NCBI GenBank assembly: GCA_963841435.1
Contig: CAWJCS010000006.1
Location: 1,632,001 to 1,696,000, forward strand
Source of the DNA: an uncultured delta proteobacterium
Lineage (GTDB): Bacteria > Myxococcota_A > Polyangia > Polyangiales > Polyangiaceae
Direction: 5' to 3'
Length of the DNA: 64,000 bases
The notes below the pieces were generated by a model. The model was not told where the DNA came from, made no database searches, and saw only the letters and a program-made list of their open reading frames with translations. Positions within the stretch are counted from its first letter, which is position 1; each line of letters opens with the position of its first letter. The position numbers and the translations under genes are program-made. Shown piece by piece: positions 32,407 to 64,000 of this stretch.

Positions 32407-32420
32407 TGGAACCGATTCCA
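32407..32420. promoter_or_regulatory. LacI-type operator candidate TGGAACCGATTCCA
   Basis: Near-palindrome upstream of the first porin-like gene; recurs at 34872 and 42640. Confidence 0.65.
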
Positions 32421-32536
32421 GTTTCGGGCTTCCGAATTTCGGCACACCCTGCTATGAGTGGCCGCGCGTTGAAACACGCCGGACGCCGAGGGCGTGCTTG
32501 CCCCGGGCAATCCGGCTCCGAACCCTCGTAGAGCCC

Positions 32537-34522
32537 ATGCGTAGGATCCTCTTCTCCGGCCTCTTGCTGCTTCTACCCAACGTTGCCCATGCCCAGGCGC
32601 AGGGCCCCGAACCGGCGAAGCCTACCGAACCGGCGACGCCAAGCCCGGCTCCCGCGGAGCCTGCCCCCGCGGCGCCGGCCTCACCGCCTTCGGAAGCGCC
32701 ACCTTCCGAGACGGCCGAGCCGGGCCCTGCTCTCGCGACCTCCTCCACCGCCGCCGGCGCCGAGCTCACGGCCGCGGGTCCCACCGCCGCAGCAACGTCC
32801 GACGGCGCGGCGACCGCCGAAGCGCCGAAGGACGCTCCGCCACCGCAGGTCGCTCGTCGAGGACAGGAGAGCGAAGACGAAGGCGCCTGGAAGTTCGACT
32901 ACCACGGCTACCTCCGCGCCCCGATGCGCCTGGGCATCAACAAGCGGCTGGCCGAGGACACGAACGGCTTCGGTGTCGCCGGCCGCAGCCCGACGACCTT
33001 CCACGAGGCCGTGATCCCCGATGACCAGTATCTGAGCTTTCAGTCCACGGCGCACAACATGCGCACGTGGGCCGAAGGCTTCTTCAGCTTCGGCAACAAC
33101 TGGGCGACGGGCGTGCTCGGCTTCGGCTCGTACAATCTCACCGAGGCGAGCTTCAGCTACACCGAGGCCCAGTGGGGCATCTCGCAGGCGTACGTGCTGC
33201 TCACTCCCGATCTCGGCTACGAGAACGTGCGCATCTGGGCGAAAGCCGGCGCCATCGTGGATCGCTACGGCATGTCGGGTCGCTACGACGCGGGCGAGTA
33301 CGACATGTACATGTTCGGCCGCACGCACGTCATGGGCGAGACGTTTCACGTCGACTACGACATCACGCCCGCCTGGACACTCTATCTCGAGCAAGGCTTC
33401 GGCACGAAAGAGCCGGATCCGAACCCGTACAACAACGCCCACTACACGCTGCTCCATCACGAGCACGTGGGCTTGAAGCAGGGCAAGGACCTCGAGTTCG
33501 GAGCCCACTACCTGATGAGCTGGAGTCAGGAAGAGTTCCGAAATACGGGCGACGCCAATTCCGTTTCTACGGGTGCGAAGGCAGCGCCACGCAACGGCTT
33601 GCCCAATGGCAAACTGTGGGTCACGGGCGTCGAGGCACGCGCCGAGCTGGGCGCGTTCGGCTACATCTACGGCGCCTACTCGCACGTCGGGTCCGACTAC
33701 GCGCTCAACGTCTCGCGGGCCATCGAGGTGCTCCACGCTTCAGGCGGCGGAGAGTTCGAGCTCGGTGTCGCCGCGAACTACCTCGACAGCCCGAACTGCC
33801 TGTCGACGCCACCCTCCGTGGTGCAACCAGTCCCCGCCGGCGCTCCTCAGAACTGGCAGCCGCTCGACATGAACGGCTGCAGCGACGGCAATGGCTCGAT
33901 CAACGCCCTCCACGCCCACTACGAGTTTAGTCTCACGAACTTCCAGCAGCAGTTCTCGGGCGGGCAGCGCTTCTGGGGTCGGGGCTTCGACGCGATCCTC
34001 AAGCTTTACGGCCTTCTGGCGTTCGTCAACAGCGAGTCGCGTGACACGACGAAGGTCTCGCGCAAGAGCGGCATGCTCGCGGATGCGCCCCAGGGTTACA
34101 AGGTGACGAAGTCGAAGTTCGGCGCCGACGTGACCGTCCAGGTGTTCCCGTGGCTCTCGCCCGGCGTGCGCTTCGACCGCGTCGTGCCGAACAGCCACAT
34201 TCCCGAGCAGTCGTTTGCGATCCTGTCGCCGCGGCTCCAGTTCAAGTCGCAGTGGGTGACGCACGAACGCATCACGCTCGGCTACTCGCACTACTTTTAC
34301 GATCAGCGTGTGTGCGACCCGCTCCAGCTCCCCGCCGCCGGCGGCGGCACCATGCCGAACCCCGACCCACTGTCGCAGTACCGCTGCACGCAGCCACCTC
34401 CCTCGCCCGTGCCGTTCGACGGCTTCGGGACCAACACGACTGACCAGGATGGCGAGCGCGCCACGAGCGTCAAGCGTCCCGACGAGAACGTCGTGAAGAT
34501 TGAAGCCACGATGTGGTGGTGA
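32537..34522 (+). CDS. Putative outer-membrane carbohydrate porin, divergent LamB-like (paralog 1)
   Basis: Signal peptide (VAHA-Q), Pro/Ala linker, WKFDYHGYLRAP, alternating aromatic strands, C-terminal IEATMWW. Confidence 0.65.
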   Translation: MRRILFSGLLLLLPNVAHAQAQGPEPAKPTEPATPSPAPAEPAPAAPASPPSEAPPSETAEPGPALATSSTAAGAELTAAGPTAAATSDGAATAEAPKDAPPPQVARRGQESEDEGAWKFDYHGYLRAPMRLGINKRLAEDTNGFGVAGRSPTTFHEAVIPDDQYLSFQSTAHNMRTWAEGFFSFGNNWATGVLGFGSYNLTEASFSYTEAQWGISQAYVLLTPDLGYENVRIWAKAGAIVDRYGMSGRYDAGEYDMYMFGRTHVMGETFHVDYDITPAWTLYLEQGFGTKEPDPNPYNNAHYTLLHHEHVGLKQGKDLEFGAHYLMSWSQEEFRNTGDANSVSTGAKAAPRNGLPNGKLWVTGVEARAELGAFGYIYGAYSHVGSDYALNVSRAIEVLHASGGGEFELGVAANYLDSPNCLSTPPSVVQPVPAGAPQNWQPLDMNGCSDGNGSINALHAHYEFSLTNFQQQFSGGQRFWGRGFDAILKLYGLLAFVNSESRDTTKVSRKSGMLADAPQGYKVTKSKFGADVTVQVFPWLSPGVRFDRVVPNSHIPEQSFAILSPRLQFKSQWVTHERITLGYSHYFYDQRVCDPLQLPAAGGGTMPNPDPLSQYRCTQPPPSPVPFDGFGTNTTDQDGERATSVKRPDENVVKIEATMWW

Positions 34523-34871: not shown

Positions 34872-34885
34872 CGGAACCGGTTCCA
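34872..34885. promoter_or_regulatory. LacI-type operator candidate CGGAACCGGTTCCA overlapping the GH9 start
   Basis: Perfect 12-bp palindrome GGAACCGGTTCC immediately before ATG 34885. Confidence 0.7.
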
Positions 34886-36582
34886 TGTTGCGCCCTTTCC
34901 TTGCCGCGTCCGCCGTCTTGCTCTTCGCCTGTGATACCGCCGACACGCGTTGTCCAACGGGCGTGAACCCCGACGGCTCCTGCAAGATCACCGGCACGAA
35001 CGCCGTCACGATCCGCACGACGACCGTCGGCTTTTTGCCCGACGCCGGCAAGCGAGCAAGCTACGTCGGCGACAACCTCGATTTTCTCGTGGTGCGCTCC
35101 GGCGACAAATCCGTCGCGTTCCAGGGCACGGCGGGGCCCGAGGTCGACGCGAGCGACACGGGCGAGACGCTCCACGTCGCCGACTTCAGCGACCTCACGC
35201 AGCCTGGCTCGTATTTCGTCGCCGTTGACGGCGTAGGGCGCTCGCCGACGTTCACGATCGCAAGCGACGTGTTCGTCGAGCCGTTCCGCGCCGCCATGCT
35301 CGGCTTCTACGGTTTCCGCTGCGGCTCGGCGGTCTCGCTCGAGTGGGAAGGCGTGCACTTCAGCCACGCCGAGTGCCACATGAGCGACGAGGCGCCGGGC
35401 GGCTGGCACGACGCGGGCGACTACGGGAAATACACGGTCAACGGCAGCTTTTCCCTCGCGATGCTGCTCTTCGCCTGGGACCATTTTCAGGAAAAACTCG
35501 AGCCCCTCACGCTCGACATTCCCGAAAGCGACAACGATCTGCCGGATTTTCTGGACGAATGCCGCTATCAGCTCGAGTGGCTGCTCGCCATGCAGGACTC
35601 CGAGACGGGCGGCGTCTACGATCGCGAGACGAACTTCTGCGAGACGTGCACGTCGCGCAACCAACCGTTCGATCCGCTCACGACCATGCCGGAGCAGACG
35701 ACCGGCGATCGCAAGCTTGCGCCCATCAGCACGCCCGCCACGGCGGACTTCGCGGCGGTCGCTGCACACGCCGCCCGCATCTTCGAGCCCTACGATTCCG
35801 ATTTCGCAAAGCGCGCGGAGGACGCCGCCGTCGCGGCGTGGAGCTACCTGCTCGAGAACCCCGAGCCGCAGGCGCCGACGTCGGCGCAATACACGGGCTC
35901 CTACGTGACGACCGATGCCGACGACCGCCTGTGGGCGGCCGCCGAAATCTGGGACACGACCGGAGACACCGAAGCACTAGCGAGCTTCGAGACCGCCTCG
36001 AAGAATCAGTACATCCGCTCCGACTGGGACTGGAGCGACGTGCAAAATCTCGGCATCTACGCGTACCTCGGCTCCGAGCGCGAGGGCCGCGACGAGGAGC
36101 GTCGCTCGCAGCTCGAGACGGCCTTGATCGCGAGCGCGGCGCAAATGGCGACGACCGCCGACACGCACGGCTACGGCCGTGACATCGGCACCGTGTACTA
36201 CTGGGGTATCAACGGCGTGATCGCGCGCACGCTCATGACCTTCGTGCTCGCCGAGCGCCTGTCGGGCGACACGAAGTACCGCATCCCTGCGGGCTACCAG
36301 CTCGATCACCTCTTCGGCCGCAACTACTACGGTCGCTCGTTCGTGACGGGTGTAGGTCAGGGCGCGCCGCAGTCCCCCCACCACCGCCCCTCCATCGCCG
36401 ACGGCGTCACGCCTCCCTGGCCCGGGCTGCTCGTCGGTGGCCCGTCGGACGCGAGCACGCCGCTCACGGCCACGACCTGGAAGGACGACTTCAACGATTT
36501 TCGCAGCAACGAAGTCGCCATCAACTGGAGTGGGGCCCTCGTGTACGCGCTCGCGGCAGTCCTCCCGGAGGCGACCCCGTGA
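34885..36582 (+). CDS. GH9 endoglucanase lipoprotein with an N-terminal Ig-like module
   Basis: Lipobox LLFAC; ADFSDL..PGSY, GGWHDAGDYGKY, PHHRPS, GLLVGGP, NEVAINW. Confidence 0.93.
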   Translation: MLRPFLAASAVLLFACDTADTRCPTGVNPDGSCKITGTNAVTIRTTTVGFLPDAGKRASYVGDNLDFLVVRSGDKSVAFQGTAGPEVDASDTGETLHVADFSDLTQPGSYFVAVDGVGRSPTFTIASDVFVEPFRAAMLGFYGFRCGSAVSLEWEGVHFSHAECHMSDEAPGGWHDAGDYGKYTVNGSFSLAMLLFAWDHFQEKLEPLTLDIPESDNDLPDFLDECRYQLEWLLAMQDSETGGVYDRETNFCETCTSRNQPFDPLTTMPEQTTGDRKLAPISTPATADFAAVAAHAARIFEPYDSDFAKRAEDAAVAAWSYLLENPEPQAPTSAQYTGSYVTTDADDRLWAAAEIWDTTGDTEALASFETASKNQYIRSDWDWSDVQNLGIYAYLGSEREGRDEERRSQLETALIASAAQMATTADTHGYGRDIGTVYYWGINGVIARTLMTFVLAERLSGDTKYRIPAGYQLDHLFGRNYYGRSFVTGVGQGAPQSPHHRPSIADGVTPPWPGLLVGGPSDASTPLTATTWKDDFNDFRSNEVAINWSGALVYALAAVLPEATP

Positions 36583-36793: not shown

Positions 36794-37690
36794 ATGCAGA
36801 GTGTATTGAAGCAATTCCTCCTTTCGTTCTGCGTCGCAACCCTCTCGGTTGCGGCCGGCTGCTCCAGCGACGCAAGCTCCGACGACGACGCGAGCGCCGG
36901 CACCGGCGGCACCGCCGGCACCAGCGCGACCGGCGACGTGCAAGTCATGCCCGACAGCACCGGTTGGGTCGATCGCGAGGCCGCCTGGAACACCATCGGC
37001 ATCCAGGGCGCCTGGTACCCGTACGGCGATCAATATGGCACCGGCCCGAGCGACGCGAAGTGCATCCACATCGGGATGCACTCGCCCACGGAGTGCTCGA
37101 CGATCACGATGCCCGATCCACTCGCCCTGGCCTTTCCCAACGTGAACGGCGACATGTGCACGGCTGGCGAAACGGCGATCATCCTCGACTGCCCCGCGGG
37201 CCTCAACACCTCGGGCTGCCCCATGGACGACTATTCGAACATGTGGGGCGCCGGCATCGGCCTCGACGTCAACGCCGACAAGGGCGAGGATGGCGGTGCG
37301 AAGAACACCTGGGATCCCGCGGCACAGGGCGTGATCGGCATCTCCTTCGAGATCGACAACGTGCCGCTCCCCGGCCTGCGCGTCGAGATCCCCATGCGGC
37401 TCACGGACACGGAAGCCGCGATGGTCAACCTGCCGCCCGGCTCGATCACCGACGATCATCCCGACGGGGCGCCGTACTGGGGCGCCACGAGCTCGTATCC
37501 CGCATCGCCGGTCGCGATGGGCGTGAACCGCGTGCTCTGGACGGACATCAAGCCCCCGCGCACCAACTACGTCTTCGACAAGGCGCGCATGTTGGGCGTG
37601 CAGTTCCACGTGCCCGCCGTCCCCGGGACGAGCACGTCGCGCGGCGCCTACAGCTTTTGCATCAAGAAGCTCACGTTCCTGAAGCAGTAG
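36794..37690 (+). CDS. Lipoprotein with a putative carbohydrate-binding (galactose-binding-like fold) domain
   Basis: Lipobox VAAGC; Gly/Thr linker; GAWYPYGD, WGAGIGLD, GISFEID, GVQFHVP motifs shared with neighbouring lipoproteins. Confidence 0.65.
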   Translation: MQSVLKQFLLSFCVATLSVAAGCSSDASSDDDASAGTGGTAGTSATGDVQVMPDSTGWVDREAAWNTIGIQGAWYPYGDQYGTGPSDAKCIHIGMHSPTECSTITMPDPLALAFPNVNGDMCTAGETAIILDCPAGLNTSGCPMDDYSNMWGAGIGLDVNADKGEDGGAKNTWDPAAQGVIGISFEIDNVPLPGLRVEIPMRLTDTEAAMVNLPPGSITDDHPDGAPYWGATSSYPASPVAMGVNRVLWTDIKPPRTNYVFDKARMLGVQFHVPAVPGTSTSRGAYSFCIKKLTFLKQ

Positions 37691-37792
37691 GCACGCGACC
37701 CGAAAGCGCCTGGCGTCACCGCCGGGCCAGTCAGCGCGGCGGCTCTACCCCGGGGCCGCCGCGCTGCATTTTGTGCGCTCCTCGGTGCTGGG

Positions 37793-39031
37793 TCAGGGCT
37801 TGGTGTAGTCGAGCAGGTTGCCCGACATCATCAGCATGGTGATGGCGCGAAGTGACTGCTGGTAATACTGATTGTTGCCGCCCGTGCCCGTGGCGCCGTA
37901 GGTGAAGGCGTCGTCGAGGAGCTTCTGCGAGCCAGCGGCCATGCCGGCGACCCCGGCGGGGCCGATGAAAGCCATGTTGCCGAAGGTCGACGTCTTCTGC
38001 CCATCGAGCGAGTAGCCGTCACCGATGTTCGCTACGCCCTGGCTGTCGAAGAAGGGCGCGATCAGGTTCAAATACTCGAGCGCGCGCGGCTCGCCGTTGA
38101 AGCAGTAGTCCATGGCGATGCGCCAGGGCGTGCGGCAGGCGTCGTAGCCGTAGCCGCCCATGTGCTGGTAGGTGGTCGTCGTGCTGTCGGGCACGAGGCC
38201 GTAGGTGCCGCTTACGTCCTTGAGAATGGCGTAGTTGCGATCGATGATCGTCGTGCGCCAGGTGCTGTTCCCCGTGACATCGGCAAAGACGCGGAAATAG
38301 GCGGGCGAAAAATAATCCGGGAACGTGCGGTTGCTCCCTTTGCCCCAGTTGTCACCCGGCACGAGCAAGCCGTCAGGGCCGATCTCGTAGGTGTACATGG
38401 CGTTGATGATCTTCTTGGCGTCGTCGAGGTACGTGCCCGACTGCCACTGCGCCGACGCCATGATGAGCGACCACGCCATGTCCTCGTCGGCGTCCGTCGC
38501 CGAGCCCGTGCCATCGCTGGCGATCGATCCGTCGGCGTTCAGGTGCCAGTTCATGAGGCCGAAGCCGTCGAGGTGGGCCTTGGCGAAGGCCCAGACTCCG
38601 TCGAACGTCGGGCGGTCGTTCATGTACACGGCGAGCAGCATGCCGTAGGCGATGCCCTCGGAGACGGTATCGCCGTTGTTCGTGAGCCTGGACACGCGCA
38701 GCGCCGCGCCCGCTGGGACGACGAACTGCCCCTTCCAATAGGTGTACGCCGAGGCGACGGCGGCCGAAGCATTGGCCACGCTCGTGATCCGACACGCGCC
38801 CGGGACCTCGTTCTGCGGAAACGGGTGCGGCCCGCCAGGGATGGGCATGGTCGTCGTCCCCGCGGCGCCGCTCGAGCCCGACGAGCCAGCGCTGCCGCCC
38901 GTCCCGCCGCTGCCGACCGTTCCGGCGCTGGAGCCCCCGCTCGAATCGTCGTCGTCCCCGTGGTGGGTCGGGGCGCTGCAGGCGGAGGCCGCGAGGACAA
39001 GGAGCGAGCAGAGGGTCCCGAACGTTCTCAA
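37793..39031 (-). CDS. GH8 endoglucanase lipoprotein
   Basis: AAAGGAG RBS before TTG; lipobox AASAC; TVSEGIAYGML, SATDADED, PDYFSPAY, YDACRTPWR. Confidence 0.92.
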   Translation of the reverse strand: MRTFGTLCSLLVLAASACSAPTHHGDDDDSSGGSSAGTVGSGGTGGSAGSSGSSGAAGTTTMPIPGGPHPFPQNEVPGACRITSVANASAAVASAYTYWKGQFVVPAGAALRVSRLTNNGDTVSEGIAYGMLLAVYMNDRPTFDGVWAFAKAHLDGFGLMNWHLNADGSIASDGTGSATDADEDMAWSLIMASAQWQSGTYLDDAKKIINAMYTYEIGPDGLLVPGDNWGKGSNRTFPDYFSPAYFRVFADVTGNSTWRTTIIDRNYAILKDVSGTYGLVPDSTTTTYQHMGGYGYDACRTPWRIAMDYCFNGEPRALEYLNLIAPFFDSQGVANIGDGYSLDGQKTSTFGNMAFIGPAGVAGMAAGSQKLLDDAFTYGATGTGGNNQYYQQSLRAITMLMMSGNLLDYTKP

Positions 39032-39197: not shown

Positions 39198-41627
39198 TCA
39201 GGCCTCGCACTCGACCTCGACCGTGCTCCCCGCGGGAGCATACGGCACGAGGTGACCGACGACGGGCTTGCCGTCAACCTTGAGCGCGACCTTGCCGCCG
39301 CGACCCTGGTTCTTGACGCGGATCTTGTAGGTGGCGCCACGGCAGCGCCGCTCGATGGAAAACTCGGCGAGGTCCTTGCCGATGACGGGCTTGACCGACA
39401 GGCCGTCCCACTCTGGCTTCACCCCGAGCAGGTACTGAGAGATGGCAACGAAGTTCCAGGCGGCCGTGCCCGTGAGCCAGGAGTTTTTCGCCTCGCCGTG
39501 GCGCACGGCGTCGCGCCCGGCGATCATCTGCGAGTAAACGTACGGCTCGGTCCGATGGACCTCGCTGATCTCCTCGAGGTATGCGGGCGCGATCTTCTTG
39601 TAGTAGTCGAACGCCTGGTCGCCCCGGCCGATCATCGTCTCCGCGATGATGACCCAGGGGTTGTTGTGGCAGAAAATGCCGGCGTTCTCCTTGTAGCCGG
39701 GCGGGTAGCTCGAGATCTCGCCGAGCTCGAGGTGGTACGTCTGGTAGGCGGGCTGCTGGAGCACGATGCCGTACTTCGTGTCGAGGCGCGCCTTGACCGA
39801 ATCGAGCGCCTTCTCGACGTGCCCGCTCTCGAGCCCGATGCCCGCCATCGAGCAGAAGCCCTGCGGCTCGATGAAGATCTGCCCCTCGGCGCACTCCTTG
39901 CTGCCGACCTTGTTGCCGAAAAAGTCGTACGCCCGCAGGTACCAGTCGCCATCCCAACCGTGAGAAAGCACCGTCTCGCTCATCTTGGCGATGAGCTCCT
40001 TGGCGCGCTTCGCCTCGTCGGTGAGACCGCGCCGTTCGGCGAGCGCCACGTACTCGGGGCCGATGTGCACGAACATGCCGGCGATGAACACCGACTCGGC
40101 CGTGCGGCCCTTCTTGTTCTCGGTGGTCTGATACGGCTCGTCGGGCGTCTCCGAAAAGCAGTTCAGGTTCAAGCAGTCGTTCCAGTCCGCGCGCCCGATG
40201 AGGGGCAGGCCATGCGGGCCGAGGTTCTCCGTGACGTGATAAAATGAGCGCTTGAGGTGCTCGAAGAGCGACGCCTGGTTGTTCTCGTCGTTGTCGAACG
40301 GAACCTGTTCGTCGAGGATCGCGAAGTCACCCGTTTCCTTCACGTAGGCGGCGACGCCGAGGATGAGCCACAGCGGGTCGTCGTTGAAGCCGCTGCCCGC
40401 CTCGTGGTTGCCGCGCTTGGTGAGCGGCTGGTATTGGTGGTACGCGCTGCCGTCGGGAAACTGCGTCGACGCGATGTCGATGATGCGCTCGCGAGCGCGC
40501 TCCGGCACGAGGTGCACGAAGCCCAAAAGGTCCTGGTTCGAGTCGCGAAAGCCCATGCCGCGGCCGATGCCCGACTCGAAGTACGAGGCGCTGCGCGACA
40601 TGTTGAACGTCACCATGCACTGGTACGGGTTCCAGACGTTCACCATGCGGTTGAGCTTGTCGTCGCTCGAGGTCAGCTTGTAGCTCGAGAGCAGGCTGCC
40701 CCAGCGCTCCTTGAGCTTCGCGAACGCCGCGTCGACTTTCTCGGGCGTCGCGAACACCGCCATCAGCGCCTTGGCGCGCTGCTTGTTGATGACGCCGGGC
40801 TTCTCCCACTTGTCGTCCTTCGGGTTCTCGACGTAGCCGAGCAAGAACACGAACGTCTTCGACTCGCCGGGCGCGAGCGTCACGTCGAGCGAGTGCGAAG
40901 CGATCGGCGACCAGCCGCTCGCGACCGAGTTCTTCGACTTTCCCGCCAGCACGACGTCCGGCTCGTGAAAGCCGTTGTAGAGGCCGAGGAACGATTCACG
41001 ATCGGTGTCGAAGCCGAGGATCGGCTGATTCACGTGATAAAACGCGAAGTGATTACGGCGCTCCCTGTACTCGTGCTTGTGGTACACGGTGCTGCCGTCG
41101 ATCTCGACCTCGGCGGTGTTGAGGTTGCGCTGGAAGTTGGTCTGATCGTCCTGCGCGTTCCAGAGGCAGAACTCCAGGAACGAGAACAGCGTGACGCGCC
41201 GCGGGGTGCTGCCTTCGTTCTTGAGCGTGACGCGCTCGACCTCGCAGTCGTGATCGACGGGCACGAACGCGAGCAGCTCCACCGACAGGGCCTTCCGCTT
41301 GCCCGTGATGCGCGTGTAGCCGAGGCCGTGCCGGCACTCGAAGGAATCGAGGGCCGTCTTCGTGGGCGAAAACGTCGGGTTCCACAGCTCGCCGTCGGCT
41401 TCCCGCACGTAGAACATCCGACCGCCCATGTCGGTCGGCACGTTGTTGTAGCGGAAGCGGAGCAGACGCCGGAGGCGCGCGTCGCGATAGAAGCAATAGC
41501 CGCCGCCCTGGTGCGAAATCAGCCCGAAGAAGCGATCCGACCCGAGGTAGTTGATCCAGGGGTAAGGCGTCTTCGGAGTGGTGATGACGTACTCTTTGGC
41601 CGCGTCATCGAAATGACCAAATCGCAT
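39198..41627 (-). CDS. GH94 cellobiose phosphorylase
   Basis: [77 protein letters not shown]. Confidence 0.93.
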
Positions 41628-41704: not shown

Positions 41705-42442
41705 CTACTGGCACCCGGTGAACTGAATGTCGTCCACCCAGATGTCGAAGTCGGCACCCTTCACGTTGACCTGCCACTGGATGCCGTAGAGCTTCGTCGG
41801 GTCGATGCCCGAGTCCTTCGGGCCCCAGTCTTCCTGGTTCATCGACGTGAACGGGATCGTGTACTGAACCCAGTCATTCGTAAACTCGAAGGTCATGCCG
41901 TGGTCGTTGAAGCACTGGTGGCAGATGCCGCCGTCGGGGTCGGTCTGCACGTCGGGCACCTTCATGCGCACCGTGCCGATGGATCCGGGGCCCTTTTTGG
42001 CCCAGAACGAGATGCCCTTGTACTTCGAGGCGTCGTAGGTGCCCTTCGGGTCGACGAAGTTCAAGCCCATGCCGGCATAGACGATGTCGGCGCCGCCGAC
42101 CTTGCCCTTCATGCGCGCTGCGTTGGCCGAGCCATTCGCGCCGCCAGGGCTCATCTCGAATGTGCCGCCGAGCGCACCGGAGAGCGGCCAGATGTCCGAG
42201 CCGCCGTTGTCCTTGGTGTCGAGGAACGTGTACCAGTAGCCGCCGCGCCCTTCGACGAAGTTGGTCTTGTTGGCCGACTCACCGTCGGAGATCATCGCCG
42301 TTTCCTTGGGGCAAGGGCGCCCCTCGGGCAGCTCGCGAGTGGAGGCGGCCGCGGGGTCCACCCTCTTCTTGCAAGCGCCCGTCGTCAGCGAAAGCGCGCA
42401 CAGGCCGCCGAGCACGGTTACCCAAACAATCGATCGAAGCAT
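41705..42442 (-). CDS. CBM11/CIA30-like carbohydrate-binding lipoprotein
   Basis: Lipobox TTGAC; GGYWYTF, YDASKYKGISFWAK, WVQYTIPF, GIQWQV, FDIWVDDIQF. Confidence 0.8.
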   Translation of the reverse strand: MLRSIVWVTVLGGLCALSLTTGACKKRVDPAAASTRELPEGRPCPKETAMISDGESANKTNFVEGRGGYWYTFLDTKDNGGSDIWPLSGALGGTFEMSPGGANGSANAARMKGKVGGADIVYAGMGLNFVDPKGTYDASKYKGISFWAKKGPGSIGTVRMKVPDVQTDPDGGICHQCFNDHGMTFEFTNDWVQYTIPFTSMNQEDWGPKDSGIDPTKLYGIQWQVNVKGADFDIWVDDIQFTGCQ

Positions 42443-42639: not shown

Positions 42640-42653
42640 CGGAACCGGTCCCA
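42640..42653. promoter_or_regulatory. LacI-type operator candidate CGGAACCGGTCCCA between divergent genes
   Basis: Third copy of the motif; a minus-strand TTGACA lies ~10 bp away at 42625-42630. Confidence 0.65.
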
Positions 42654-42770: not shown

Positions 42771-43793
42771 ATGACTTATCGCTCCCTTCTTTCGGGCTGG
42801 ACCCCCACCCTCACCGTGGTTTCTGGCCTGCTTTACGTCGGCTGCGGCGCAGCCCCCGTGAACACGGGTGACGACGATGCGGCTTCCGGCGCAACCGGAG
42901 GCGCAGGTGGCGTCGGCAATGGTGGGGCCTCGGCCGTCGGGGGGAGCGGCGTGGGCGGCGCAACGGGCGGTGTGGGCGGCGCAACGGGCGGCGCGGGTGG
43001 TGCGACGGGCGGCGTCGGATCGGGTGGCACGGCAGGTGTCATCACGGCTGGCGTCACCAGCAGCTCCGGCGGGACGGTCGCGGCTTCGCTCTGTGGCCAG
43101 CCCACGGGCGTCGCCACCGAGAAGCTCATCGACGATCTGGAAGACGGGGACAACACCGTGGGCAACGGCCTCGGCGACCCGGTGCCCCCTTCGCGCGTCG
43201 GCTACTGGTTCACGTACAACTCGAACGACTCGAGCTGCACGCCGCTCAGCATGGGTGGCAATTGCCCTTGCAAGCAGAGCCCGCCCCCCGACCCCCAGGG
43301 CCTCATCCCCTTCCCCCCGGCGGCGAATCCCGGCAACGGCAGCATGTTCGCCGCGCACACCTCGGGCAGCGCCTGCACGACGTGGGGCGCGGGCCTCGGC
43401 GTCGATTTCAACAATTGCAACACGAAGAGCAACCCGTACAACGTGAGCGCCTACTCGGGCATCGGCTTCTCCTACAAGAGCAACCAGCCCCTGCGCGTGC
43501 TCGTCGGGACTCAGCCGAACCTGCCGACCTCGGAGGGCGGCTCGTGCGGCGGCACCGATTGCTACAACCACCACGGCAAGAACTTCGCGGCGGCGAGCGC
43601 CTGGACGACGGTCACCATCTCGTGGGCCGAGCTCCAGGGCACACAGCAGATCGGCAGCCCGCCCGCGGACCCGCAGACCTACGGCGAAAAGCGTGCGTTC
43701 GACCCGACGAAGGTGCTCAATCTCGAGTTCCAGGTGGACGCGAGCGGCGGCCAGAACTTCGACTTCTGGGTCGATGACGTGACGTTCCTCTGA
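42771..43793 (+). CDS. CBM11-like carbohydrate-binding lipoprotein with a Gly-rich linker
   Basis: Lipobox LYVGC; LIDDLEDG, GYWFTY, WGAGLG, YNVSAYSGIGF, FDPTKVLNLEFQV, FDFWVDDVTF. Confidence 0.78.
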   Translation: MTYRSLLSGWTPTLTVVSGLLYVGCGAAPVNTGDDDAASGATGGAGGVGNGGASAVGGSGVGGATGGVGGATGGAGGATGGVGSGGTAGVITAGVTSSSGGTVAASLCGQPTGVATEKLIDDLEDGDNTVGNGLGDPVPPSRVGYWFTYNSNDSSCTPLSMGGNCPCKQSPPPDPQGLIPFPPAANPGNGSMFAAHTSGSACTTWGAGLGVDFNNCNTKSNPYNVSAYSGIGFSYKSNQPLRVLVGTQPNLPTSEGGSCGGTDCYNHHGKNFAAASAWTTVTISWAELQGTQQIGSPPADPQTYGEKRAFDPTKVLNLEFQVDASGGQNFDFWVDDVTFL

Positions 43794-43826: not shown

Positions 43827-44789
43827 TCAGAAGCCGTAGGCGCCGCCAACCGCGAGCGCGAAGCCGATGGCCGTCGCGGGAACCATCGCGAGCACGCGTA
43901 GCTCGCCCGTGATCATCACATTGCCGATGCCGTAGCCGACGCCGCCGCCCGGCGCGACGAACGCCGTGCCCGTCTTGCGCCAGGCGTGCAGCGTCCCCGA
44001 CTGGTGGTCGTCGGCGTGCTGCTTGTCCTTGTAGAACTGGACGGCCACGAGTCCGTCCACCTCACCGAGCCCCAAGCCGAGTGAGGCGAACGGTCGGAGC
44101 CCGGGGTGCGCGAACGGCGCAGCGCCGAAGAAATAGGCTCCGCGAAGCTCCACGTGGAGCGGCAAGGATGCGCCCACGCCCTCCACGGTCGGCGCCTCGC
44201 GAAACGCGTACCCGACGCGCGCGCCGGCCAGCAGCCGGCCGATGAAGAGCCGGTCGTAGCCAACGAGCACCCGCGTCGTCGTGAGCCCGAAGCCGCCCGA
44301 GACCACGTTGCCGGCGCCGGAATAGACGCGGTCCGAGTACAGGCCCTTGTCGTCACGGCAGGTGTACTGCGTCGCGCCGGGGGACTTCTTGCCGTTCTCG
44401 TCGATCGAGGGGCAGACGCCCGGCGTGGACGGGAAAATCAGCGAATCCTGCTGAACGCTCAGGCTCACCCAGTTGAGCTTCGACGGGCCACGCGAACGTG
44501 CCTCGTCATCGGACTCGGAGATGGGCTTTTCCGCCGGCTCTTCCTCCTCGAGCTCGATGACCTCGATCTTCTGCCCCTTGGTGTTGGTCGTGGTCATGAC
44601 GATGTCGTCGGAATCGTGCTCCACGGCAGCGGGCTTGGACTCCTTCGACTTCTTCTTCTTGGTCTTGGCGTTGTGCTGCGAGCTCTGGGCGACAGACTTC
44701 GCGGGGGCGGTCGCCGGCCAGCCGAGAGCCGCGAAGAGCAGGCACGCCGCGCCTTTGCTGCGGGCGGATCGCCAAGGGAAGCGGGCCAT
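43827..44789 (-). CDS. Secreted protein, probable small outer-membrane beta-barrel
   Basis: Signal peptide; amphipathic strands (RVLVGYDR, GARVGYAF, HVELRGAY); C-terminal GGAYGF. Confidence 0.55.
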   Translation of the reverse strand: MARFPWRSARSKGAACLLFAALGWPATAPAKSVAQSSQHNAKTKKKKSKESKPAAVEHDSDDIVMTTTNTKGQKIEVIELEEEEPAEKPISESDDEARSRGPSKLNWVSLSVQQDSLIFPSTPGVCPSIDENGKKSPGATQYTCRDDKGLYSDRVYSGAGNVVSGGFGLTTTRVLVGYDRLFIGRLLAGARVGYAFREAPTVEGVGASLPLHVELRGAYFFGAAPFAHPGLRPFASLGLGLGEVDGLVAVQFYKDKQHADDHQSGTLHAWRKTGTAFVAPGGGVGYGIGNVMITGELRVLAMVPATAIGFALAVGGAYGF

Positions 44790-44893
44790 GGAAAGTCGGG
44801 GGACCATAGCAACGGCTCGCCACGGCCTGCAATCGGGCTCGGGCTCCGATTTTCGGCGCAAGAACTCCTGATTTGAGTCGGGCGACCTTGCAG

Positions 44894-46071
44894 CTAGGTG
44901 TGCTCGTTCGCGCCGGCACATGCCGCGGTAGCGAAAACTTCCACGGATCGGCCGAAGGCGTCTCGCAGCCGTGCGCGCCAGGCGTCGCCGAGCGTGTCGA
45001 TGGCTCGCCCCGCGGCGAGCGCGATCGCGCAGCCACCGAAGCCCCCGCCCGTCATGCGGGCGCCGTACACGCCGGGGATCTCGAGCGCGACCTCGACGGC
45101 GAGGTCGAGCTCGGCGAGCTCACTTCGTAGTCGTCGCGCAACGACGCGTGCGAGGCGCCCATGAGGCTGCCGAGCCGGTCGAGCTCCCCGTGTTCGAGGA
45201 GCTCTGCCGCCATGAGCGTACGCCCGTTCTCGCTGACGACGTGGCGCGCGCGGCGTAGCAGCGTGTCCGGCAGCTCGTGGGCGTAGCGTTCGAAATCAGC
45301 GAGTGAAACGTCGCGCAGCGAGCGCACGCCGGGGATCTTCTTCGCGAAGTGCGCAGCCGCGCGCTCGCACTCTGCGCGGCGCTCGTTGTACGCCGACGTC
45401 GCGAGATCGTGCTTGACCTTGGTGTCGCAGACGACGATGCGCGCGCCGCCGAGGTCGAGTGACACCACGCGCGGCTCGAGCGAGCGGCAGTCGATGAGCA
45501 GCGCGCCCCCGGCGACGCCGAGGGATGCGATTGCCTGATCCATGATGCCGCAGCGCGTGCCCACGTACTCGTGCTCGGCCGCCTGCCCCGCGAGCGCGAG
45601 CGTCATGCGATCGATGGTCTCGTGCCCCGCGAGCGACGCGAGCGCGAGCCCGACGGCGATCTCGAGCGCCGCCGAGGCCGAGAGACCCGCGCCCGGCGGT
45701 ACCTCACTGTCGATGAGCAGGCTCGCGCCACGCACGGGCACACCGCGCGCGATGAGCGCCCTCGCCGTTCCCTCGACGTAGTCGCCCCACGTGCCACGCC
45801 GTGGCACGCCTGGGTCGGCGAGCGTGAATTCGAACGGCTCGGGCTGGCCCGTCGAGACAGCGACGACCCGACCGTCGTCGCGCGGCGCCGCAGCGACACG
45901 CGTGCGCCGATCGATCGCCATGGGCAGCACGAAGCCGTCGTTGTAGTCGGTGTGCTCGCCGATCAGGTTCACGCGCCCGGGCGCGGAGAAGAGCCGCGCC
46001 GACCCGCCGAAACGGCGAGTGAAGGCTTCCGCGAGGCCGGTCAGGGTCGTCACGCGCTCGGCGTCGAGCAT
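44894..46071 (-). CDS. galK: Galactokinase with one apparent frameshift near 45113
   Basis: [44 protein letters not shown]; the shifted frame continues [14 protein letters not shown] to TAG at 44894. Confidence 0.92.
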
Positions 46072-46090: not shown

Positions 46091-47624
46091 TTACCACCAG
46101 AGGCTCGCCGTGAGCGCCAGCATGCTCTTGTCCGGGGCGATGGTCGGGTCGTCGTGCGGGGGGTAGCCGCCGCGCACGACCGTGCGGCTGCCGTAGACGA
46201 ACCGCGTGTACTGGAGCGCGACCTGATCGTGCGCGTTCCATCCCGATCGGAACAGCAGACGCGGCGAGATCTCGAAGAAGGCCGTGTCCGAGTCGTTGAA
46301 CGTCGGGCCAAACCTGATCGGCACGCGCCGAAACGCCGAACCAGGGCAGGATGGCGTAGCTTGCCTCGGCGCCGAGCTTGCGCTTGGTCACGCCGTCGTA
46401 AAGCGCCCGACCCGTTGCAGGGTCAACGGATTTGTCGTGGCTCGAGACGTGGGTCTGCATGCCGAACAGGCTGACGACGATGTCGGGGCCCTCACCCACG
46501 AAGTAGGGACCGTAGAGCAGCCTCGAGATGCTGAGATCGTACTGCGCTCCCAGCGTGAAAAGAGAGCCCGTGGCGGCGCTCTTCGGCCCGAAATACTGGT
46601 CCATGAGCCCGACGCCGCTGTCGACGTTCAGGACCTCGATGATGCGGCCGAGCGAGCGCGCGTAGTCGGCGCCGTGGTGCACGGCGCCGAAGTAGAAATG
46701 CCCGAAGCGGCTCAGCGTGAGCCCCAGATCGGCGCCCAGGATGGTGACGCGCCCGTCGGGTTGGTCGTTCTGGCTCGCGCGGTCGTCCTGCGTAAACGCC
46801 GACAGGTAGTGCAAGCCGAGCACGCCCATGCCGCCGTAGCCGATGCCGACGTGCTCACCGAACACCCAGCCCGCGCCGGTGCGCGAATCGGCAAAGTCGT
46901 TCGAATAGTCGGGGGTGATGCCGTTCCATGGCTTGTCGGCCTGCCCCTGGATCTCCTGCGCAAGCAACAGGGAAAAGTCGCCGAAGGAGAAGCCGGCGTT
47001 GACGGCCTCGCCGATGCCGTTCGTGCGCACGATGATGGGCGTCGCGTAGCGTCCCTCGTCCCACTCTCCCATGCTGCCGTAGCGCTGGGAAAACGCGCCA
47101 ATCGTCACGGAAAACCGAGCATTCTTCAGGAGGTCGGAGAGCTCGAAGTCGAGGTACGCGTCCTCGATGCCGGGGTTCTTCGGCGGATCGAAGAACGACG
47201 CGGCCGTGCGCGGCTGGCGCGAAACGACGGAGATGTTGCCCGTGACGATGGGGTTGCCGTACGTGAAGCGCAAATCGACGTAGGGCTGAGGAACCGTGCC
47301 CGTGTAGTTGAAGCTGTCGGTGTAGTCGGGAACGACGGGCGGAGCGTGCAACGTCGACTTCTGCTGCTTGGCCGCGACCGTGGTGCGCTCGCCGAAGCCG
47401 GCGCGGAGCGGCATCATCATCATGCCGTGGAAGTCGAAGCGCCAATCGCTCTCGTCCTTCGCCGCGTGATGGTACGCGGGGGCAATGCCGCCGGGCACCG
47501 GGCCCGCTTGCGGGGCGCTCGGGGAAAGCCCCAAGACGGGCGGCGACGCGCTCTCCTCGGCCAAAGCCGGCAGCGCGAGGCTCACCGAACAGCCGAGAAT
47601 GGCGAATTTGAGGCCAGCGTTCAT
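46091..47624 (-). CDS. Putative outer-membrane carbohydrate porin, divergent LamB-like (paralog 2); frameshift near 46310
   Basis: Signal peptide (PALA-E), WRFDFHG, strong similarity to paralog 1; C-terminal TASLWW lies in small ORF 46091-46324. Confidence 0.65.
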
Positions 47625-49646: not shown

Positions 49647-49667
49647 GCGCTGTGCTCCGATTTTCGC

Positions 49668-51185
49668 TCAGGGGCGCTTGCGATAAAAGCCGATGTCGTT
49701 GACGTAGGTGTCGAGATAGCCGGCGCTGAAGTAGAGGGCGACCGACCAGATGCCGCTCGGGTTGAAGCGGCGCGCGATTCGGCGTGAAACGGCGGAATTC
49801 CGACCACGGGATCGTGAAAAGCCTCCACTCCGTGTCGACGACGACGTTCGCCTCGAAGCCGTCACCACAGCGGTTCTCGTTCTTCTCGGGCAGCGCAGGA
49901 TTCGCCGGGCTCCCAGCAGTAGTAGCCGGACGCCTGATCGAATCGGAAGACGTACGGATTGCAGGCGCGGCCGCCGAACTGCGGGTCACCCGGTGCCGTC
50001 GGGCGTCTCTTCTGCCATGGTCCGCGGGCAGCAGAGCGGGATGTTGCGATCGTCAGTCCGTCGAAGGCGACCTGATAGGTGCCGCCGTCGTCCCGACGGC
50101 GTCCGATCCGGACGTCCTGATCGGCGGGTCACGAAAGTCGACATGCCCGTCACGGTCCGTCGCGGAGCTCCGGAGGGCGCTGCGCTCACCGGGCAACTAG
50201 CAGCGCTGTTCGTCCTCCTTCTGCACGCCTCACGATGCCGCCGGTCCTCGTAAACCAGGGCATCTCGTACTCGACGGAGTTGCAGTGGCGACAGCAACTC
50301 TTCGTCCGCTTGACACGCCGGCCCGGGCGGATTGCTGGCCGGGTCACTCATCTTCGCGTCGTAGGCGGCGCGCTCCACCTCGAGCGCGAGCCCCTCACTC
50401 GTGTTGTTGTCGTTGAGCGCCACGCGCAACGTGGACTGTCCACCGGGCCCGCGCCGCGCCCAGAACGCAAGCCCTTCGAAATCCGACACGTCGAGCCCGA
50501 GGCGCGAGCCCTGCCCCTGCACCGGGGTCATCCAGAAGCCGCACGTGTCTATCGGTCGCCGTCGGCCCCAAGCCGATTCCGACCGGCTGGCCTTCGAGCT
50601 CTACAGGGCAGTACCTCTCGACGTATTTCGCCCCGCGCACGATGGCGTATTGCGTGACGTAACCGCCACCCCACGAGACGAACGGGCCGCCCTGGAGGTG
50701 CAGCGCGTAGTTGCTCGAGCAGCGCGCCCCGCCCGGCATCGTTCGCAGATCCGGCACCTGGAGGCCCCAGTACGGCGCCGGAACCGTGGCCGGCGTGTCG
50801 GTCGAGCTCGACGCTGGAACCCACCTGATTGGGCTCGATCGGAATCCCGGGCTCGCCGTAGTTGAACCACGTTGGAGCAAACGCCTGCTCGAAGTCGTGC
50901 GATCGTCATGATCTCGAGGTCGTCGCCCTGAGCGCAATTCGTGCACGACGGACCCGGGTCGGGGCGCATCCCCATATCGGTGATGGCCTGCGCGTCGGTC
51001 GTCGGGACGCCCCAGTACACCGAGCCGTCGGGAACCTCGGGAGGCGGCGTTCCGCCGTCGAGCAGCTCCGCGCACGTCGGGCGCGGTCGATCGCTCGAAA
51101 CACAGGCCGCCCCGACGAAACCAAGCGCAGCGAGCACGATCCCCAAGCGGATGATCCACTGCGCTTTCTTGGGGGAGCTCTGCAT
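49668..51185 (-). CDS. Cys-rich lipoprotein with a CBM11-like domain; several apparent frameshifts
   Basis: Lipobox VGAAC; fragments in different frames give WGGG, LDVSDFEGLAFWAR, EWRLFTIPWSEF, LDTYVNDIGFY. Confidence 0.6.
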
Positions 51186-51468: not shown

Positions 51469-52617
51469 ATGGCAGGCGTCGTTCTGACGGACGTAGTGAA
51501 GATCTTCGACAGCGGCGTCAAAGTCGTCGATCGCTTCAACCTCGAGATCCAAGATCGCGAGTTCGTGGTGCTCGTCGGTCCCTCGGGCTGTGGGAAATCG
51601 ACGACGCTGCGCATGGTGGCGGGGCTCGAGGACATCACGAGCGGCACCATCGCCATCGGGGGCAAGGTCGTGAACGACGTGCCGCCGAAGGATCGCGACA
51701 TCGCCATGGTGTTTCAGAGCTATGCGCTCTACCCGCACATGACGGTGTACGAGAACATGGCGTTCGCGCTCAAGCTCCGGAAGCAGCCGAAGGCCACCAT
51801 CGACGAGAAGGTGCGCCACGCCGCCCAAATCCTCGGCATCGAGGGGCTGCTCGCGCGCAAGCCGAAAGCGCTTTCCGGCGGGCAGCGGCAACGCGTCGCC
51901 GTCGGACGCGCCATCGTGCGCGACCCCAAGTGCTTTCTGTTCGACGAGCCGCTCTCGAACCTCGACGCCAAGCTTCGCGTCGAGATGCGCGCCGAGATCA
52001 AGCACATCCACATGAGCTTGAACGCGACGACGATCTACGTCACGCACGACCAGGAAGAAGCGATGACGCTCGGTGACCGCGTCGTCGTGATGAAGGACGG
52101 CGTCATTCAGCAATGCGCGAACGCGCTCGAGGTCTATCACCATCCCGAGAATCGCTTCGTCGCCGGGTTCCTCGGCAGCCCACCCATGAACTTCTTCACG
52201 GGTCGCATCCTCGGCGACGCTCAGCGGCTCGTCTTCGACGAGGGCACCGGCAAGCTCCCCGTACCCGACTGGGCGAAGAGCGCCCTCGAGCCCTACGTTG
52301 ACAAGGAAGTCGTGCTCGGGGTGCGCCCCGAGGCGCTGTCGGACAAGGGCCACGCCCGCTTCGCCGCGACGGACAACCATTTGACGATGCGCGTCACGCT
52401 CGTGCAGCCCCTCGGCGATCGCATGGACGTGTACCTTTCCACGGATTCCCACCCGCACTCCGTGGCGCAGGTCGCCGCGCACATGGGCCTCAATCCCGGC
52501 ACCACCATGCCGGTCTACTTCGACCCCAGCCGACTGAATTTCTTCGAGCCCGGCGAGATCGGCAAGCGCATCGTCACGAACCCGGCGTCCACCGCCGAGT
52601 CGAGCACCGCTGCCTAG
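51469..52617 (+). CDS. Carbohydrate ABC transporter ATP-binding protein (MsiK/UgpC/MalK family)
   Basis: [55 protein letters not shown]-like tail. Confidence 0.95.
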
Positions 52618-52700
52618 CCGCTCCCGAAGTCCGCGGCGATGTGCGTCATCGCCCGAGGGCCTTCCCAGCGACGCCATCGTGGTATAGGCACGCCGGCGTC

Positions 52701-53984
52701 ATGGCAGATCTCGACAAGCTCGCAATCCTCGTCGGCGGCGGTCCCGCCCCCGGTATCAACAGCGTGATCGGCGCGGCGACGATCCGCGCTTGCCTCTCGG
52801 GTCTGAAGGTCGTCGGCATCCAGGACGGCTTCCAGTGGATCATGCGGGGCGACACGGAGCACGCCCGGCCGCTCGACATCGACGACGTGTCGCGAATCCA
52901 TTTCCGCGGCGGCTCGGTGCTCGGTACGGCGCGGGCGAACCCGACCAAGGACGCGAAGCACCTCGCGGGGGCGCTCGAATCGCTGAAGAAGCTCGGCGTG
53001 GGCAAGCTCGTCACGATCGGCGGCGACGACACGGCGTTCTCCGCGCTCAAGCTCGCAGAGGCGTCGCAGGGCTCGCTCAGGGTCGTCCACGTCCCGAAGA
53101 CGATCGACAACGACCTCGACCTACCCGACAGCATCCCGACGTTCGGGTACCAGACCGCGCGCCATGTCGGCACGGGCATCGTCCGGGATCTGCTCACGGA
53201 CGCTCAAACCACGTCGCGCTGGTACTTCGTGGTCGCGATGGGCCGCAAGGCCGGGCACCTCGCGCTCGGCATCGGGAAGGCCGCGAGCGCGACGCTCACG
53301 GTGATTCCCGAGGAATTCGGCCGCAAGATCGTGCCGCTCGACGAGATGGCCGACATTCTCGTCGGGGCCATCATCAAGCGCCTCACCCACGGCCGTCCGG
53401 ACGGCGTCGCCGTCCTCGCCGAAGGGCTCGTCGAGCACCTCTCGGAGGACGAGCTCAAGACGGTCGCCGGCGACGTCGAGCTCGACGAGCACGGCCACAT
53501 CCGAATGGCGGAGGTCGAGTTCGGACCCATCATCAAGAATCGCGTGCAAGCAAAGCTCAAGGCGCTCGGCGTGAACACCACCGTCGTCTCGAAGAACATC
53601 GGTTACGAGCTCCGCTGCACCGATCCGATCCCCTTCGACATGGAGTACACGCGTGACCTCGGTTACTGCGCCGCGAAGTACCTGATCGAGGGAGGCTCGG
53701 GCGCCATGGTCAGCATGCAGCAGGGCAAGTTCAAGCCCATCAAGTTCGGCGACATGCTCGACCCCGCAACGGGCCGCACGCGCGTTCGCATGGTCAACAC
53801 CGACACGGAGTCCTACAAGATCGCGAGGCGCTACATGATTCGTCTGCGCCGCGACGACTTCGACGAGCCAGCCGAGCTCGCCCAACTTTCCAAGACGGCC
53901 AAGCTCGAGCCCGCGGCGTTCCGCAAGCGCTTCGAGTACCTCGTGAAGAACGAGGCGCCGCCGCTCACGTTCAACTACCCGTAG
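52701..53984 (+). CDS. pfp: Pyrophosphate-dependent phosphofructokinase
   Basis: GGGPAPGIN, TIGGDDT (Asp) and PKTIDND (Lys) PPi-type signatures, MGRKAG, GYELRC. Confidence 0.88.
   Translation: MADLDKLAILVGGGPAPGINSVIGAATIRACLSGLKVVGIQDGFQWIMRGDTEHARPLDIDDVSRIHFRGGSVLGTARANPTKDAKHLAGALESLKKLGVGKLVTIGGDDTAFSALKLAEASQGSLRVVHVPKTIDNDLDLPDSIPTFGYQTARHVGTGIVRDLLTDAQTTSRWYFVVAMGRKAGHLALGIGKAASATLTVIPEEFGRKIVPLDEMADILVGAIIKRLTHGRPDGVAVLAEGLVEHLSEDELKTVAGDVELDEHGHIRMAEVEFGPIIKNRVQAKLKALGVNTTVVSKNIGYELRCTDPIPFDMEYTRDLGYCAAKYLIEGGSGAMVSMQQGKFKPIKFGDMLDPATGRTRVRMVNTDTESYKIARRYMIRLRRDDFDEPAELAQLSKTAKLEPAAFRKRFEYLVKNEAPPLTFNYP

Positions 53985-62339: not shown

Positions 62340-64000
<1,661 letters not shown>

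Follow-up and report, generated by a model that had tools for sequence, protein, structure and literature searches.

Within a window of 64,000 nucleotides from an uncultured Polyangiaceae bacterium (assembly GCA_963841435.1, contig CAWJCS010000006.1, positions 1,632,001-1,696,000 of the forward strand), we have followed up a cluster of cellulase, lipoprotein and beta-barrel genes that a first-pass annotation had read as a porin-based, TonB-free polysaccharide utilisation locus (PUL) for cellulose or beta-glucan. We put the probability at roughly 60% that this locus is a TonB-independent beta-glucan utilisation system built around passive, maltoporin-shaped outer-membrane channels; transport, membrane topology and induction are the parts of the model that we infer. 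The earlier idea is broadened here to a family-wide, multi-substrate system, and its details are corrected.

The assembly has 6 contigs and 7.78 Mb at a completeness of 95%. Genes were called by third-position GC content (GC3; window G+C 68-70%) and named with Pfam and NCBIfam, and coordinates are window-based. The locus and its immediate flanks are laid out as follows:

29012-31474: UvrD-like helicase, unrelated left flank (Pfam/NCBIfam)
31489-32445: class-II glutamine amidotransferase (GATase), unrelated left flank (Pfam/NCBIfam)
32407..32420, no strand: operator-like palindrome site 1, TGGAACCGATTCCA, 117 bp 5' of barrel A
32537..34522, + strand: barrel A, with a signal peptide, a Pro/Ala-rich linker of ~95 amino acids (aa), a predicted 18-strand maltoporin-like barrel and a C-terminal MWW
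34872..34885, no strand: operator-like palindrome site 2, CGGAACCGGTTCCA, immediately adjoining the start codon of GH9
34885..36582, + strand: predicted GH9 endoglucanase with an N-terminal Ig-like CelD_N domain and lipobox LLFAC (Pfam)
36794..37690, + strand: lipoprotein C, VAAGC, distant member of the CBM11-like family (hhalign; no Pfam match)
37732..37766, no strand: terminator with a 15-bp stem between the convergent C and GH8 genes
37793..39031, - strand: predicted GH8 endoglucanase, lipobox AASAC, with a TTG start at 39031 or 39061 (Pfam)
39198..41627, - strand: predicted GH94 cellobiose phosphorylase, without a signal peptide (Pfam)
41705..42442, - strand: lipoprotein F, TTGAC followed by KKR, predicted CBM11-like beta-sandwich, conserved beside GH94
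42640..42653, no strand: operator-like palindrome site 3, CGGAACCGGTCCCA, in the promoter region between the divergent genes F and G
42771..43793, + strand: lipoprotein G, YVGC, with a Gly-rich linker and a CBM11-like domain
43827..44807, - strand: H, with a signal peptide, a charged linker and a small C-terminal barrel ending in YGF
44894..46071, - strand: galK, with one frameshift near 45110 (Pfam signature at 45052-46071; Pfam, NCBIfam)
46091..47624, - strand: barrel J, downstream pair member, frameshifted once near 46300 within a GTTTGGCCC run
47663..~49618, - strand: barrel K, upstream pair member, with a possible CTG start at 49618 or 49612
49668..51185, - strand: fourth CBM11-like lipoprotein, VGAAC, broken over at least three frames, with a weak GC3 signal
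51469..52617, + strand: MalK/MsiK/UgpC-type ATP-binding cassette (ABC) ATPase (ABC_tran, OB_MalK and TOBE_2; Pfam, NCBIfam)
52641..53984, + strand: pyrophosphate (PPi)-dependent phosphofructokinase (PFK; Pfam PFK, NCBIfam)
54059-54577: cupin, unrelated right flank (Pfam/NCBIfam)

The enzymes speak for the substrate. The protein of glycoside hydrolase (GH) family 94, whose catalytic and supersandwich domains score 572 and 279 bits in Pfam, matches cellobiose phosphorylase 3qde at 1289 bits versus 435 for chitobiose phosphorylase and is, on these scores, a cellobiose phosphorylase, placed in the cytoplasm because it carries no signal peptide. The best match of GH9 in the Protein Data Bank (PDB) is C. 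thermocellum CelD (452 bits), and GH8 scores 204 bits with CelA versus 83 with chitosanase. Together with the CBM11 fold of the carbohydrate-binding module (CBM)-like lipoproteins described below, these scores point to beta-1,4-glucans or mixed-linkage glucans, in keeping with the cellulose or beta-glucan that had been proposed. Chitin or chitosan, whose degradation in the Vibrio chitin pathway is likewise marked by GH94, GH9, GH8 and a porin, was rejected as the substrate on the PDB scores of GH94 and GH8. The PPi-PFK matches NF041103 at 644 bits (cut-off 550), and the MalK/UgpC-type ATPase, an ABC domain followed by a C-terminal OB_MalK/TOBE region, matches NF008653 at 461 bits (cut-off 432).

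The first-pass inventory stands. GH94, galK, the MsiK-type ATPase and the PPi-PFK all lie about where they had been placed (Pfam/NCBIfam), and the lipoboxes seen on GH9 and GH8 can be read from the translations as LLFAC and AASAC. The four CBM-like lipoproteins (C, F, G and the fourth) are present, each with a signal peptide ending in a lipobox Cys, and the three barrels A, J and K are indeed paralogous, at pairwise identities of 23-27% (tblastn E 1e-13 to 4e-36). What had been overlooked are the gene defects in J, galK, K and the fourth lipoprotein, and a fourth small barrel, H, which the Atlas tentatively links to OMP_b-brl, a domain present in 31% of the members of one cluster.

Folds of the barrels and lipoproteins

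The AlphaFold2 (AF2) model of barrel A, built on a 31-sequence alignment (predicted local distance difference test (pLDDT) 68, predicted template modelling score (pTM) 0.70), has 18 long strands after a disordered Pro/Ala-rich linker and presents the 18-stranded, plug-less beta-barrel that characterises sugar porins. Compared with solved structures in VIA-align, it is closest to maltoporin 1mpr (Z 20.7, root-mean-square deviation (rmsd) 3.7, 352 of 421 residues aligned) and to ScrY (1a0s, Z 19.2), followed by OccD2 of the Occ channels (Z 16.0) and, lower down, by chitoporins (Z 14.2-14.6), AlgE (Z 14.2) and Wzi (Z 13.4); Foldseek also ranks LamB and ScrY at the top, with a best E of 3.5e-8. 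A's relatives are hypothetical proteins from Polyangiaceae metagenome-assembled genomes (MAGs), and the genome encodes a canonical LamB of its own elsewhere (PF02264, 298 bits, C6:756822-758069). The barrel family is a sequence orphan with, as modelled, a LamB-type fold. The "LamB-like porins" of the first-pass annotation are borne out by the modelled fold, with maltoporin and ScrY as the best matches, and not by sequence.

At 50% identity the family falls into 722 clusters in a set of 1.84 billion proteins, and it is found in at least 17 of 401 sampled genomes of the phylum (stricter filter) and in at least 13 of 61 of the taxonomic family, both counts being floors from samples that include this genome. 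One homologue (P0067) has been assigned to PF27998, so that the barrels may by now have a family entry in a more recent version of Pfam.

The structural matches also bear on an opposite direction of traffic, in which the barrels export or display neighbouring lipoproteins or polysaccharide, much as Slam, LptDE, AlgE or Wzi do, and do not serve uptake. The barrels nearly always adjoin lipoprotein genes, AlgE and Wzi are among the fold matches, and NCBIfam links GH8 weakly to BcsZ (69 bits, cut-off 299), all of which would suit export. However, the sugar-uptake porins LamB and ScrY exceed AlgE and Wzi by 4-6 Z units, Pfam finds no glycosyltransferase or polysaccharide synthase in the locus, and the partner enzymes (GH94, the endoglucanases and PFK) are catabolic, so we regard an export role as quite unlikely.

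The companion lipoproteins resemble a known carbohydrate-binding module. F was modelled with a pLDDT of 86.7, and its best structural match is CBM11 1v0a of C. thermocellum Lic26A-Cel5E (Z 16.9, rmsd 2.9, 157 of 170 residues; Foldseek E 1e-7), with the CIA30 fold close behind at Z 15.7; F is accordingly predicted to adopt the CBM11 beta-sandwich. In sequence, the F-family profile matches 1v0a at E 4e-4, and Pfam CBM_11 (PF03425) matches 4 of 30 F-family members (best E 3.6e-4), the window's own F giving no match at E <= 1. G aligns to F at 28% identity, and the C family aligns to the F family in hhalign (A3 versus A2) with 97.8% probability and an E of 8.7e-13 over 112 columns. The beta-sandwich would be common to the CBM11 of Lic26A-Cel5E, to F and, more distantly, to C and G; in Lic26A-Cel5E it is a module of an enzyme, whereas here it forms a stand-alone, putatively glycan-binding lipoprotein.

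Gene linkage and regulation

We compared 71 A-type barrel loci from MAGs labelled Polyangiaceae, Polyangiales or Myxococcota by tblastn with the window proteins. GH94 lies within 10 kb of the barrel at 33 of them; an F-like lipoprotein is found at 35, GH9 at 20, a C-like lipoprotein at 13, an H homologue at 11 and galK at none, and gene order and strand vary among the loci. The association of barrel, GH94, lipoprotein and GH9, for which the first-pass annotation had proposed a synteny search, is found again in other Polyangiaceae MAGs. Four loci (L053, L054, L066 and L073) are without the UvrD/GATase flanks and carry A-F-GH9-GH94 in this order on one strand, together with CBM4-Ig-GH9, with GH48 as well in L073, and in two of the four with a sugar-binding-domain/SpoIIE sensor.

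Among the nearest relatives, L010-L012, the order is A-C-GH8-GH94-F, followed in L010 and L011 by H and PFK (the stretch fetched for L012 stops within F). The conserved core is A-C-GH8-GH94-F-H-PFK. GH9, G, the galK-J-K-fourth lipoprotein block and MsiK are absent from these relatives and are therefore additions in this genome, so the ~21 kb that had been taken as a single unit is not one.

Two side features recur at these loci. A LacI-type periplasmic sugar-binding domain fused to a SpoIIE/PP2C phosphatase occurs at the ends of cellulose-type loci of other MAGs (L053:19478-21862 and L137:17553-20000), and these fusions are possible sugar sensors. A vWA-like lipoprotein with a DRSGSMF motif and no Pfam match lies between barrel and GH94 at L014:12016-13269, L071:11824-13110 and L031:12131-13684; its own-genome copies, at C6:565819-566841 and C2:780017-781051, are near two-mismatch sites of the operator-like palindrome.

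The barrels also recur beside enzymes for other polymers. This genome holds 12 barrel genes at 6 loci, and according to Pfam on 78 open reading frames (ORFs) around the other five, four of these are clusters of carbohydrate-active enzymes (CAZymes) with tandem barrel pairs. One contains two GH5 genes, CE2 and F-like lipoproteins; another, the xylan locus, has a sigma-54 two-component system with GH10, GH3 and GH67, directly followed by a CUT1 importer that lacks its own ATPase (one binding protein, two permeases) and then by AraC and GH30; a third has GH2, LacI, GH44 and AraC; and a fourth has PL3, PL1, KduI and an MFS transporter. No CAZyme was found at the fifth (L001). In other genera, all eight tandem pairs that were fetched adjoin CBM11-like lipoproteins and/or homologues of GH5, CE2, GH44, GH3, GH10 and GH30 (recognised by tblastn with this genome's CAZymes, not by Pfam), and one of them has a MalK-type ATPase 70% identical to that of the window. 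Judged from gene content, barrel loci appear to be associated with xylan, mannan, xyloglucan and pectin CAZyme clusters, and the barrel family appears to behave in a PUL-like manner. Elsewhere in this genome and in sister genera its members come either singly or in fixed pairs of an upstream and a downstream barrel, accompanied by a CBM11-like lipoprotein.

The phylogeny follows the same divisions. In a quick IQ-TREE run on 34 barrels, the single cellulose-type barrels group together (support 99), and a second clade (support 97) gathers 12 of the 13 downstream pair members. The subclades of the upstream members match those of the downstream members by locus type. J and K of the window fall within xylan-type subclades, apart from the cellulose-type barrel A.

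The repeated operator-like motif that had been noted is present at three promoters as a 14-bp palindrome, TGGAACCGGTTCCA, recognised by reading the intergenic DNA; it occurs at 32407 and 34872 with one mismatch each and at 42640 with two. A generic repeat search found no operator, and at up to three mismatches the 5 sites in the window are not above shuffled sequence (mean 2.3; 6 of 100 shuffles reach 5). Across the 7.78-Mb genome, sites with at most one mismatch number 9 versus 0-3 for eight scrambled palindromes, and two of the nine belong to this locus, 2.5 kb apart. The other seven comprise one 5' of GH39-GH30, one between GH6 and a GHMP kinase, two 5' of DUF1592/DUF1552 pairs and three beside unrelated genes, while two-mismatch sites lie 5' of a further GH8 gene and in the interval separating a GH8 from an Opp-type ABC operon. 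The palindrome fits what we take to be the LacI-family operator pattern, TGnnAnCGnTnnCA, and the genome has three LacI genes (C4:621273, C2:214554 and C3:871711), none of them in the window. From the distribution of its sites, a LacI-type palindrome would tie A, GH9 and F/G to other cellulase genes.

That the palindrome or the CGAAAATCGG element might be a sigma-54 promoter was considered and rejected, the GG-to-GC spacing being off consensus. An exact 13-mer, GCTCCGATTTTCG, stands upstream of H (44843-44855) and of K (49654-49666), and the similar CCGAATTTCGG upstream of A; the 13-mer is not above shuffles in the window, and of its 5 exact genome copies none is at the other barrel loci. Pairs of DUF1592/DUF1588 (PSD/PSCyt) and DUF1552 (HXXSHH) genes recur by operator sites, CAZyme clusters and TonB receptors (L078, L081, L002, L089 and L090).

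The linkage could also have arisen without any dedicated coupling, if the barrels were general or unrelated porins that stand near cellulases through gene order inherited in one lineage. The UvrD/GATase flanks are retained at 24 of the 33 GH94-linked loci, and because they are common to most, much of the synteny is inherited order and not independent evidence. At 22 of the 71 loci, about half of them short contigs, there is no lipoprotein or GH94/GH9/GH8 homologue, and an A'-type subgroup (L001 at C3:448k of this genome, L016-L019, L074 and L075) adjoins sigma-54 regulators instead, with no CAZyme detectable by the queries used. Yet the association outlasts rearrangement and flank loss at the four loci named above, paralogous pairs occur in four other CAZyme clusters of this genome with different substrates and in eight of eight cases in other genera, barrel subclades track locus type, and the operator motif is common to A, GH9 and F/G. 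We hold mere inheritance of gene order to be an unlikely explanation.

The shared flanks, the unlinked loci and the A'-type subgroup nevertheless weigh against a dedicated uptake system, as does a further set of observations. The model of A has only moderate confidence, with a pLDDT below 50 in 190 of 661 residues; A, J and K have no match in Pfam (E <= 0.01) or NCBIfam, and four homologues have none at E <= 1; the barrel-family profile matches no solved porin, and hhalign gives it a probability of 0.4% against the genome's own LamB. No inner-membrane importer is encoded within the locus, and the J/K module has three or four defective genes. The residues after the lipidated Cys in F and its syntenic orthologues are K/R-K-R/K, and in Myxococcus xanthus, a member of another myxobacterial class, PMC3222651 records Lys at +2 in 8 of 12 inner-membrane lipoproteins. 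Because +2 Lys marks such lipoproteins there, F may, by analogy, have its anchor in the inner membrane and be exposed to the periplasm. The binding lipoproteins of the first-pass annotation retain their CBM11-like fold; the +2 Lys of F points away from the cell surface.

Uptake route and comparison with known systems

No SusC- or SusD-type Pfam match was found among the locus ORFs, which sets the locus apart from Bacteroidota PULs. A profile search with PF00593 recovers 10 TonB-dependent receptors in the genome, none on the window's contig, and SusD_RagB (PF07980) has 0 matches in this 95% complete genome, which bears out the claim that the locus is free of SusC and TonB receptors. Cellodextrins could still enter in a TonB-dependent manner through the ~10 receptors encoded elsewhere, leaving the barrels to carry small sugars only; the genome does have TonB and ExbB besides the receptor matches, several of which carry CarboxypepD_reg domains, as in SusC-like proteins. 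However, a CAZyme, a GH31, is found in only one of the 10 receptor neighbourhoods, and no receptor is near GH5, 6, 8, 9, 10 or 94 (Pfam annotation of 87 ORFs, each 200 aa or longer and no more than ~8 kb away; 7 edge ORFs omitted). With no receptor on the contig and no SusD, we consider this route very improbable.

The TonB-independent route that we favour would need an importer at the inner membrane. The genome encodes no full-length MalK-type ATPase besides that of the locus, which fits a shared energiser for CUT1 importers that have no ATPase of their own. An Opp-type operon at C2:786-792k (SBP_bac_5, two permeases and two ATPases) is the best candidate for a cellodextrin importer, its one link to the locus being a half-matching operator. 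An inner-membrane transporter was also looked for at the cellulose-type loci of other genomes, and none was found.

On the basis of these observations, we propose the following sequence of events:

(i) The lipid-anchored GH9 and GH8 would cut beta-1,4-glucan, and the CBM11-like lipoproteins C, F and G would hold chains or oligomers at the envelope.

(ii) Cellodextrins would then diffuse through barrel A, as its fold and gene linkage suggest.

(iii) An ABC importer encoded elsewhere, either the Opp-type system or CUT1 permeases energised by the MalK-type ATPase of the locus, would carry them across the inner membrane.

(iv) By homology, GH94 would phosphorolyse cellobiose to glucose-1-phosphate and glucose, and PPi-PFK would feed glycolysis.

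(v) The LacI-type palindrome would coordinate A, GH9 and F/G with the other cellulase genes.

Glycan capture by Gram-negative bacteria is currently described by two models: the TonB-powered PUL of SusCD type and a dedicated sugar porin acting singly (LamB, ScrY and ChiP are examples). The E. coli maltose system (LamB, MalE-MalFGK2 and MalP), whose mal layout is described in PMC13543919, and Salmonella ScrY have the 18-strand sugar-porin fold to which the model of barrel A is closest, and the maltose system also has a MalK-type ATPase with OB/TOBE and a cytoplasmic phosphorylase acting on imported oligosaccharide. Here, in contrast, the barrel does not belong to the LamB family by sequence, the predicted substrate is a beta-glucan and not an alpha-glucan, lipoprotein endoglucanases and CBM-type lipoproteins are added, the barrel family has multiplied into substrate-specific singles and pairs, and neither a permease nor a binding protein is encoded within the locus. 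The Vibrio chitin pathway combines ChiP, a periplasmic chitodextrinase, an Opp-type (GlcNAc)2 ABC importer, a GH94 chitobiose phosphorylase and GH9. Both systems would combine porin, GH9 and GH94 on one logic, the structures that match A include chitoporins, and a candidate Opp-type importer stands behind a related operator; the differences are that GH94 here is, on its scores, a cellobiose phosphorylase, that GH8 is CelA-like, and that the barrel is of another family, with 18 strands.

The organisation is that of a PUL, with CAZymes, predicted glycan-binding lipoproteins and a shared regulatory signal in several substrate-specific copies. Like Bacteroidota PULs, the locus brings these together with an outer-membrane barrel and an operator, and such clusters recur within the genome; unlike them, it has no TonB-dependent SusC and no SusD, its barrel has a plug-less porin fold, its binding proteins have the predicted CBM11 fold, and import would be passive. 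In its working the locus would thus resemble the porin pathways for maltose and chitin, and in its organisation it resembles a PUL, yet it belongs neither to the LamB family nor to the SusCD type. The literature searched, including the accessible portions of PMC13543919 and bioRxiv 10.64898/2026.07.10.737566, holds no description of this architecture, and to that extent agrees with the first-pass statement that it is undescribed.

The locus suggests a third arrangement in uncultured soil Myxococcota, namely PUL-like, multi-copy, substrate-specific clusters that rely on passive porins and CBM-fold lipoproteins. More speculatively, and with doubts that outweigh our confidence, an uncultured branch of Polyangiaceae may have evolved its own class of PUL, in which LamB-fold porins replace SusC and CBM11-fold lipoproteins replace SusD and surface glycan-binding proteins (SGBPs); the porins would be single for cellulose and obligate hetero-pairs for xylan, mannan, xyloglucan and pectin, and the lipoprotein might dock on the barrel as a substrate-capturing lid, giving selective capture that is independent of energy. 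Why the barrels occur as co-diversifying pairs is a question that these loci raise. The barrel family may serve as a searchable marker for plant-polymer loci in Polyangiaceae MAGs, and it supplies candidate channels for cellodextrins and xylo-oligosaccharides with which uptake by Gram-negative hosts might be engineered.

The J/K module and further observations

The galK-J-K-lipoprotein block is probably an inserted hemicellulose (xylan-type) module that is decaying, unless its defects are local assembly errors. All defects are confined to 44.9-51.2 kb, and the other cluster genes (~15 kb in total) are intact; an intact locus with a pair of the K and J type lies at C5:1252-1255k. In addition to the frameshifts in galK and J, K has no in-frame ATG, GTG or TTG upstream of its signal peptide, and the fourth lipoprotein matches CBM11-like lipoproteins in pieces only, in frames -1, -2 and -3, with weak codon bias. 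The end branches of J and K in the tree are long (0.64 and 1.07 versus 0.2-0.5 for their neighbours), which fits relaxed selection on the module and also sequence errors. Because the assembly holds long-read artefacts, the defects of this module may reflect either real decay or local assembly error.

These artefacts take the form of islands nearly without cytosine. One, of 3.6 kb, runs from window position 62380 past 64000 to ~C6:1698000 in a contig of 69% G+C and consists of G/T-rich noise with a run of ~200 T and a run of ~350 A; a second lies at C2:851001-853000 and includes one 1-kb window at 0.0 GC. Both look like products of long-read assembly, and indels in other parts of the assembly therefore call for caution.

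Interrupted reading frames also occur away from the module. A C-like lipoprotein beside the A' paralogue matches in two frames (L001:10501-11249, C3:450501-451249), another frameshift in a member of these families, and outside the locus an AAA_25 ATPase domain is split over the overlapping ORFs 56343-56996 and 56843-57469, likely by a frameshift. Elsewhere in the window, 12693-15869 encodes a protein of ~1058 aa with six DUF4215 repeats, unrelated to the locus.

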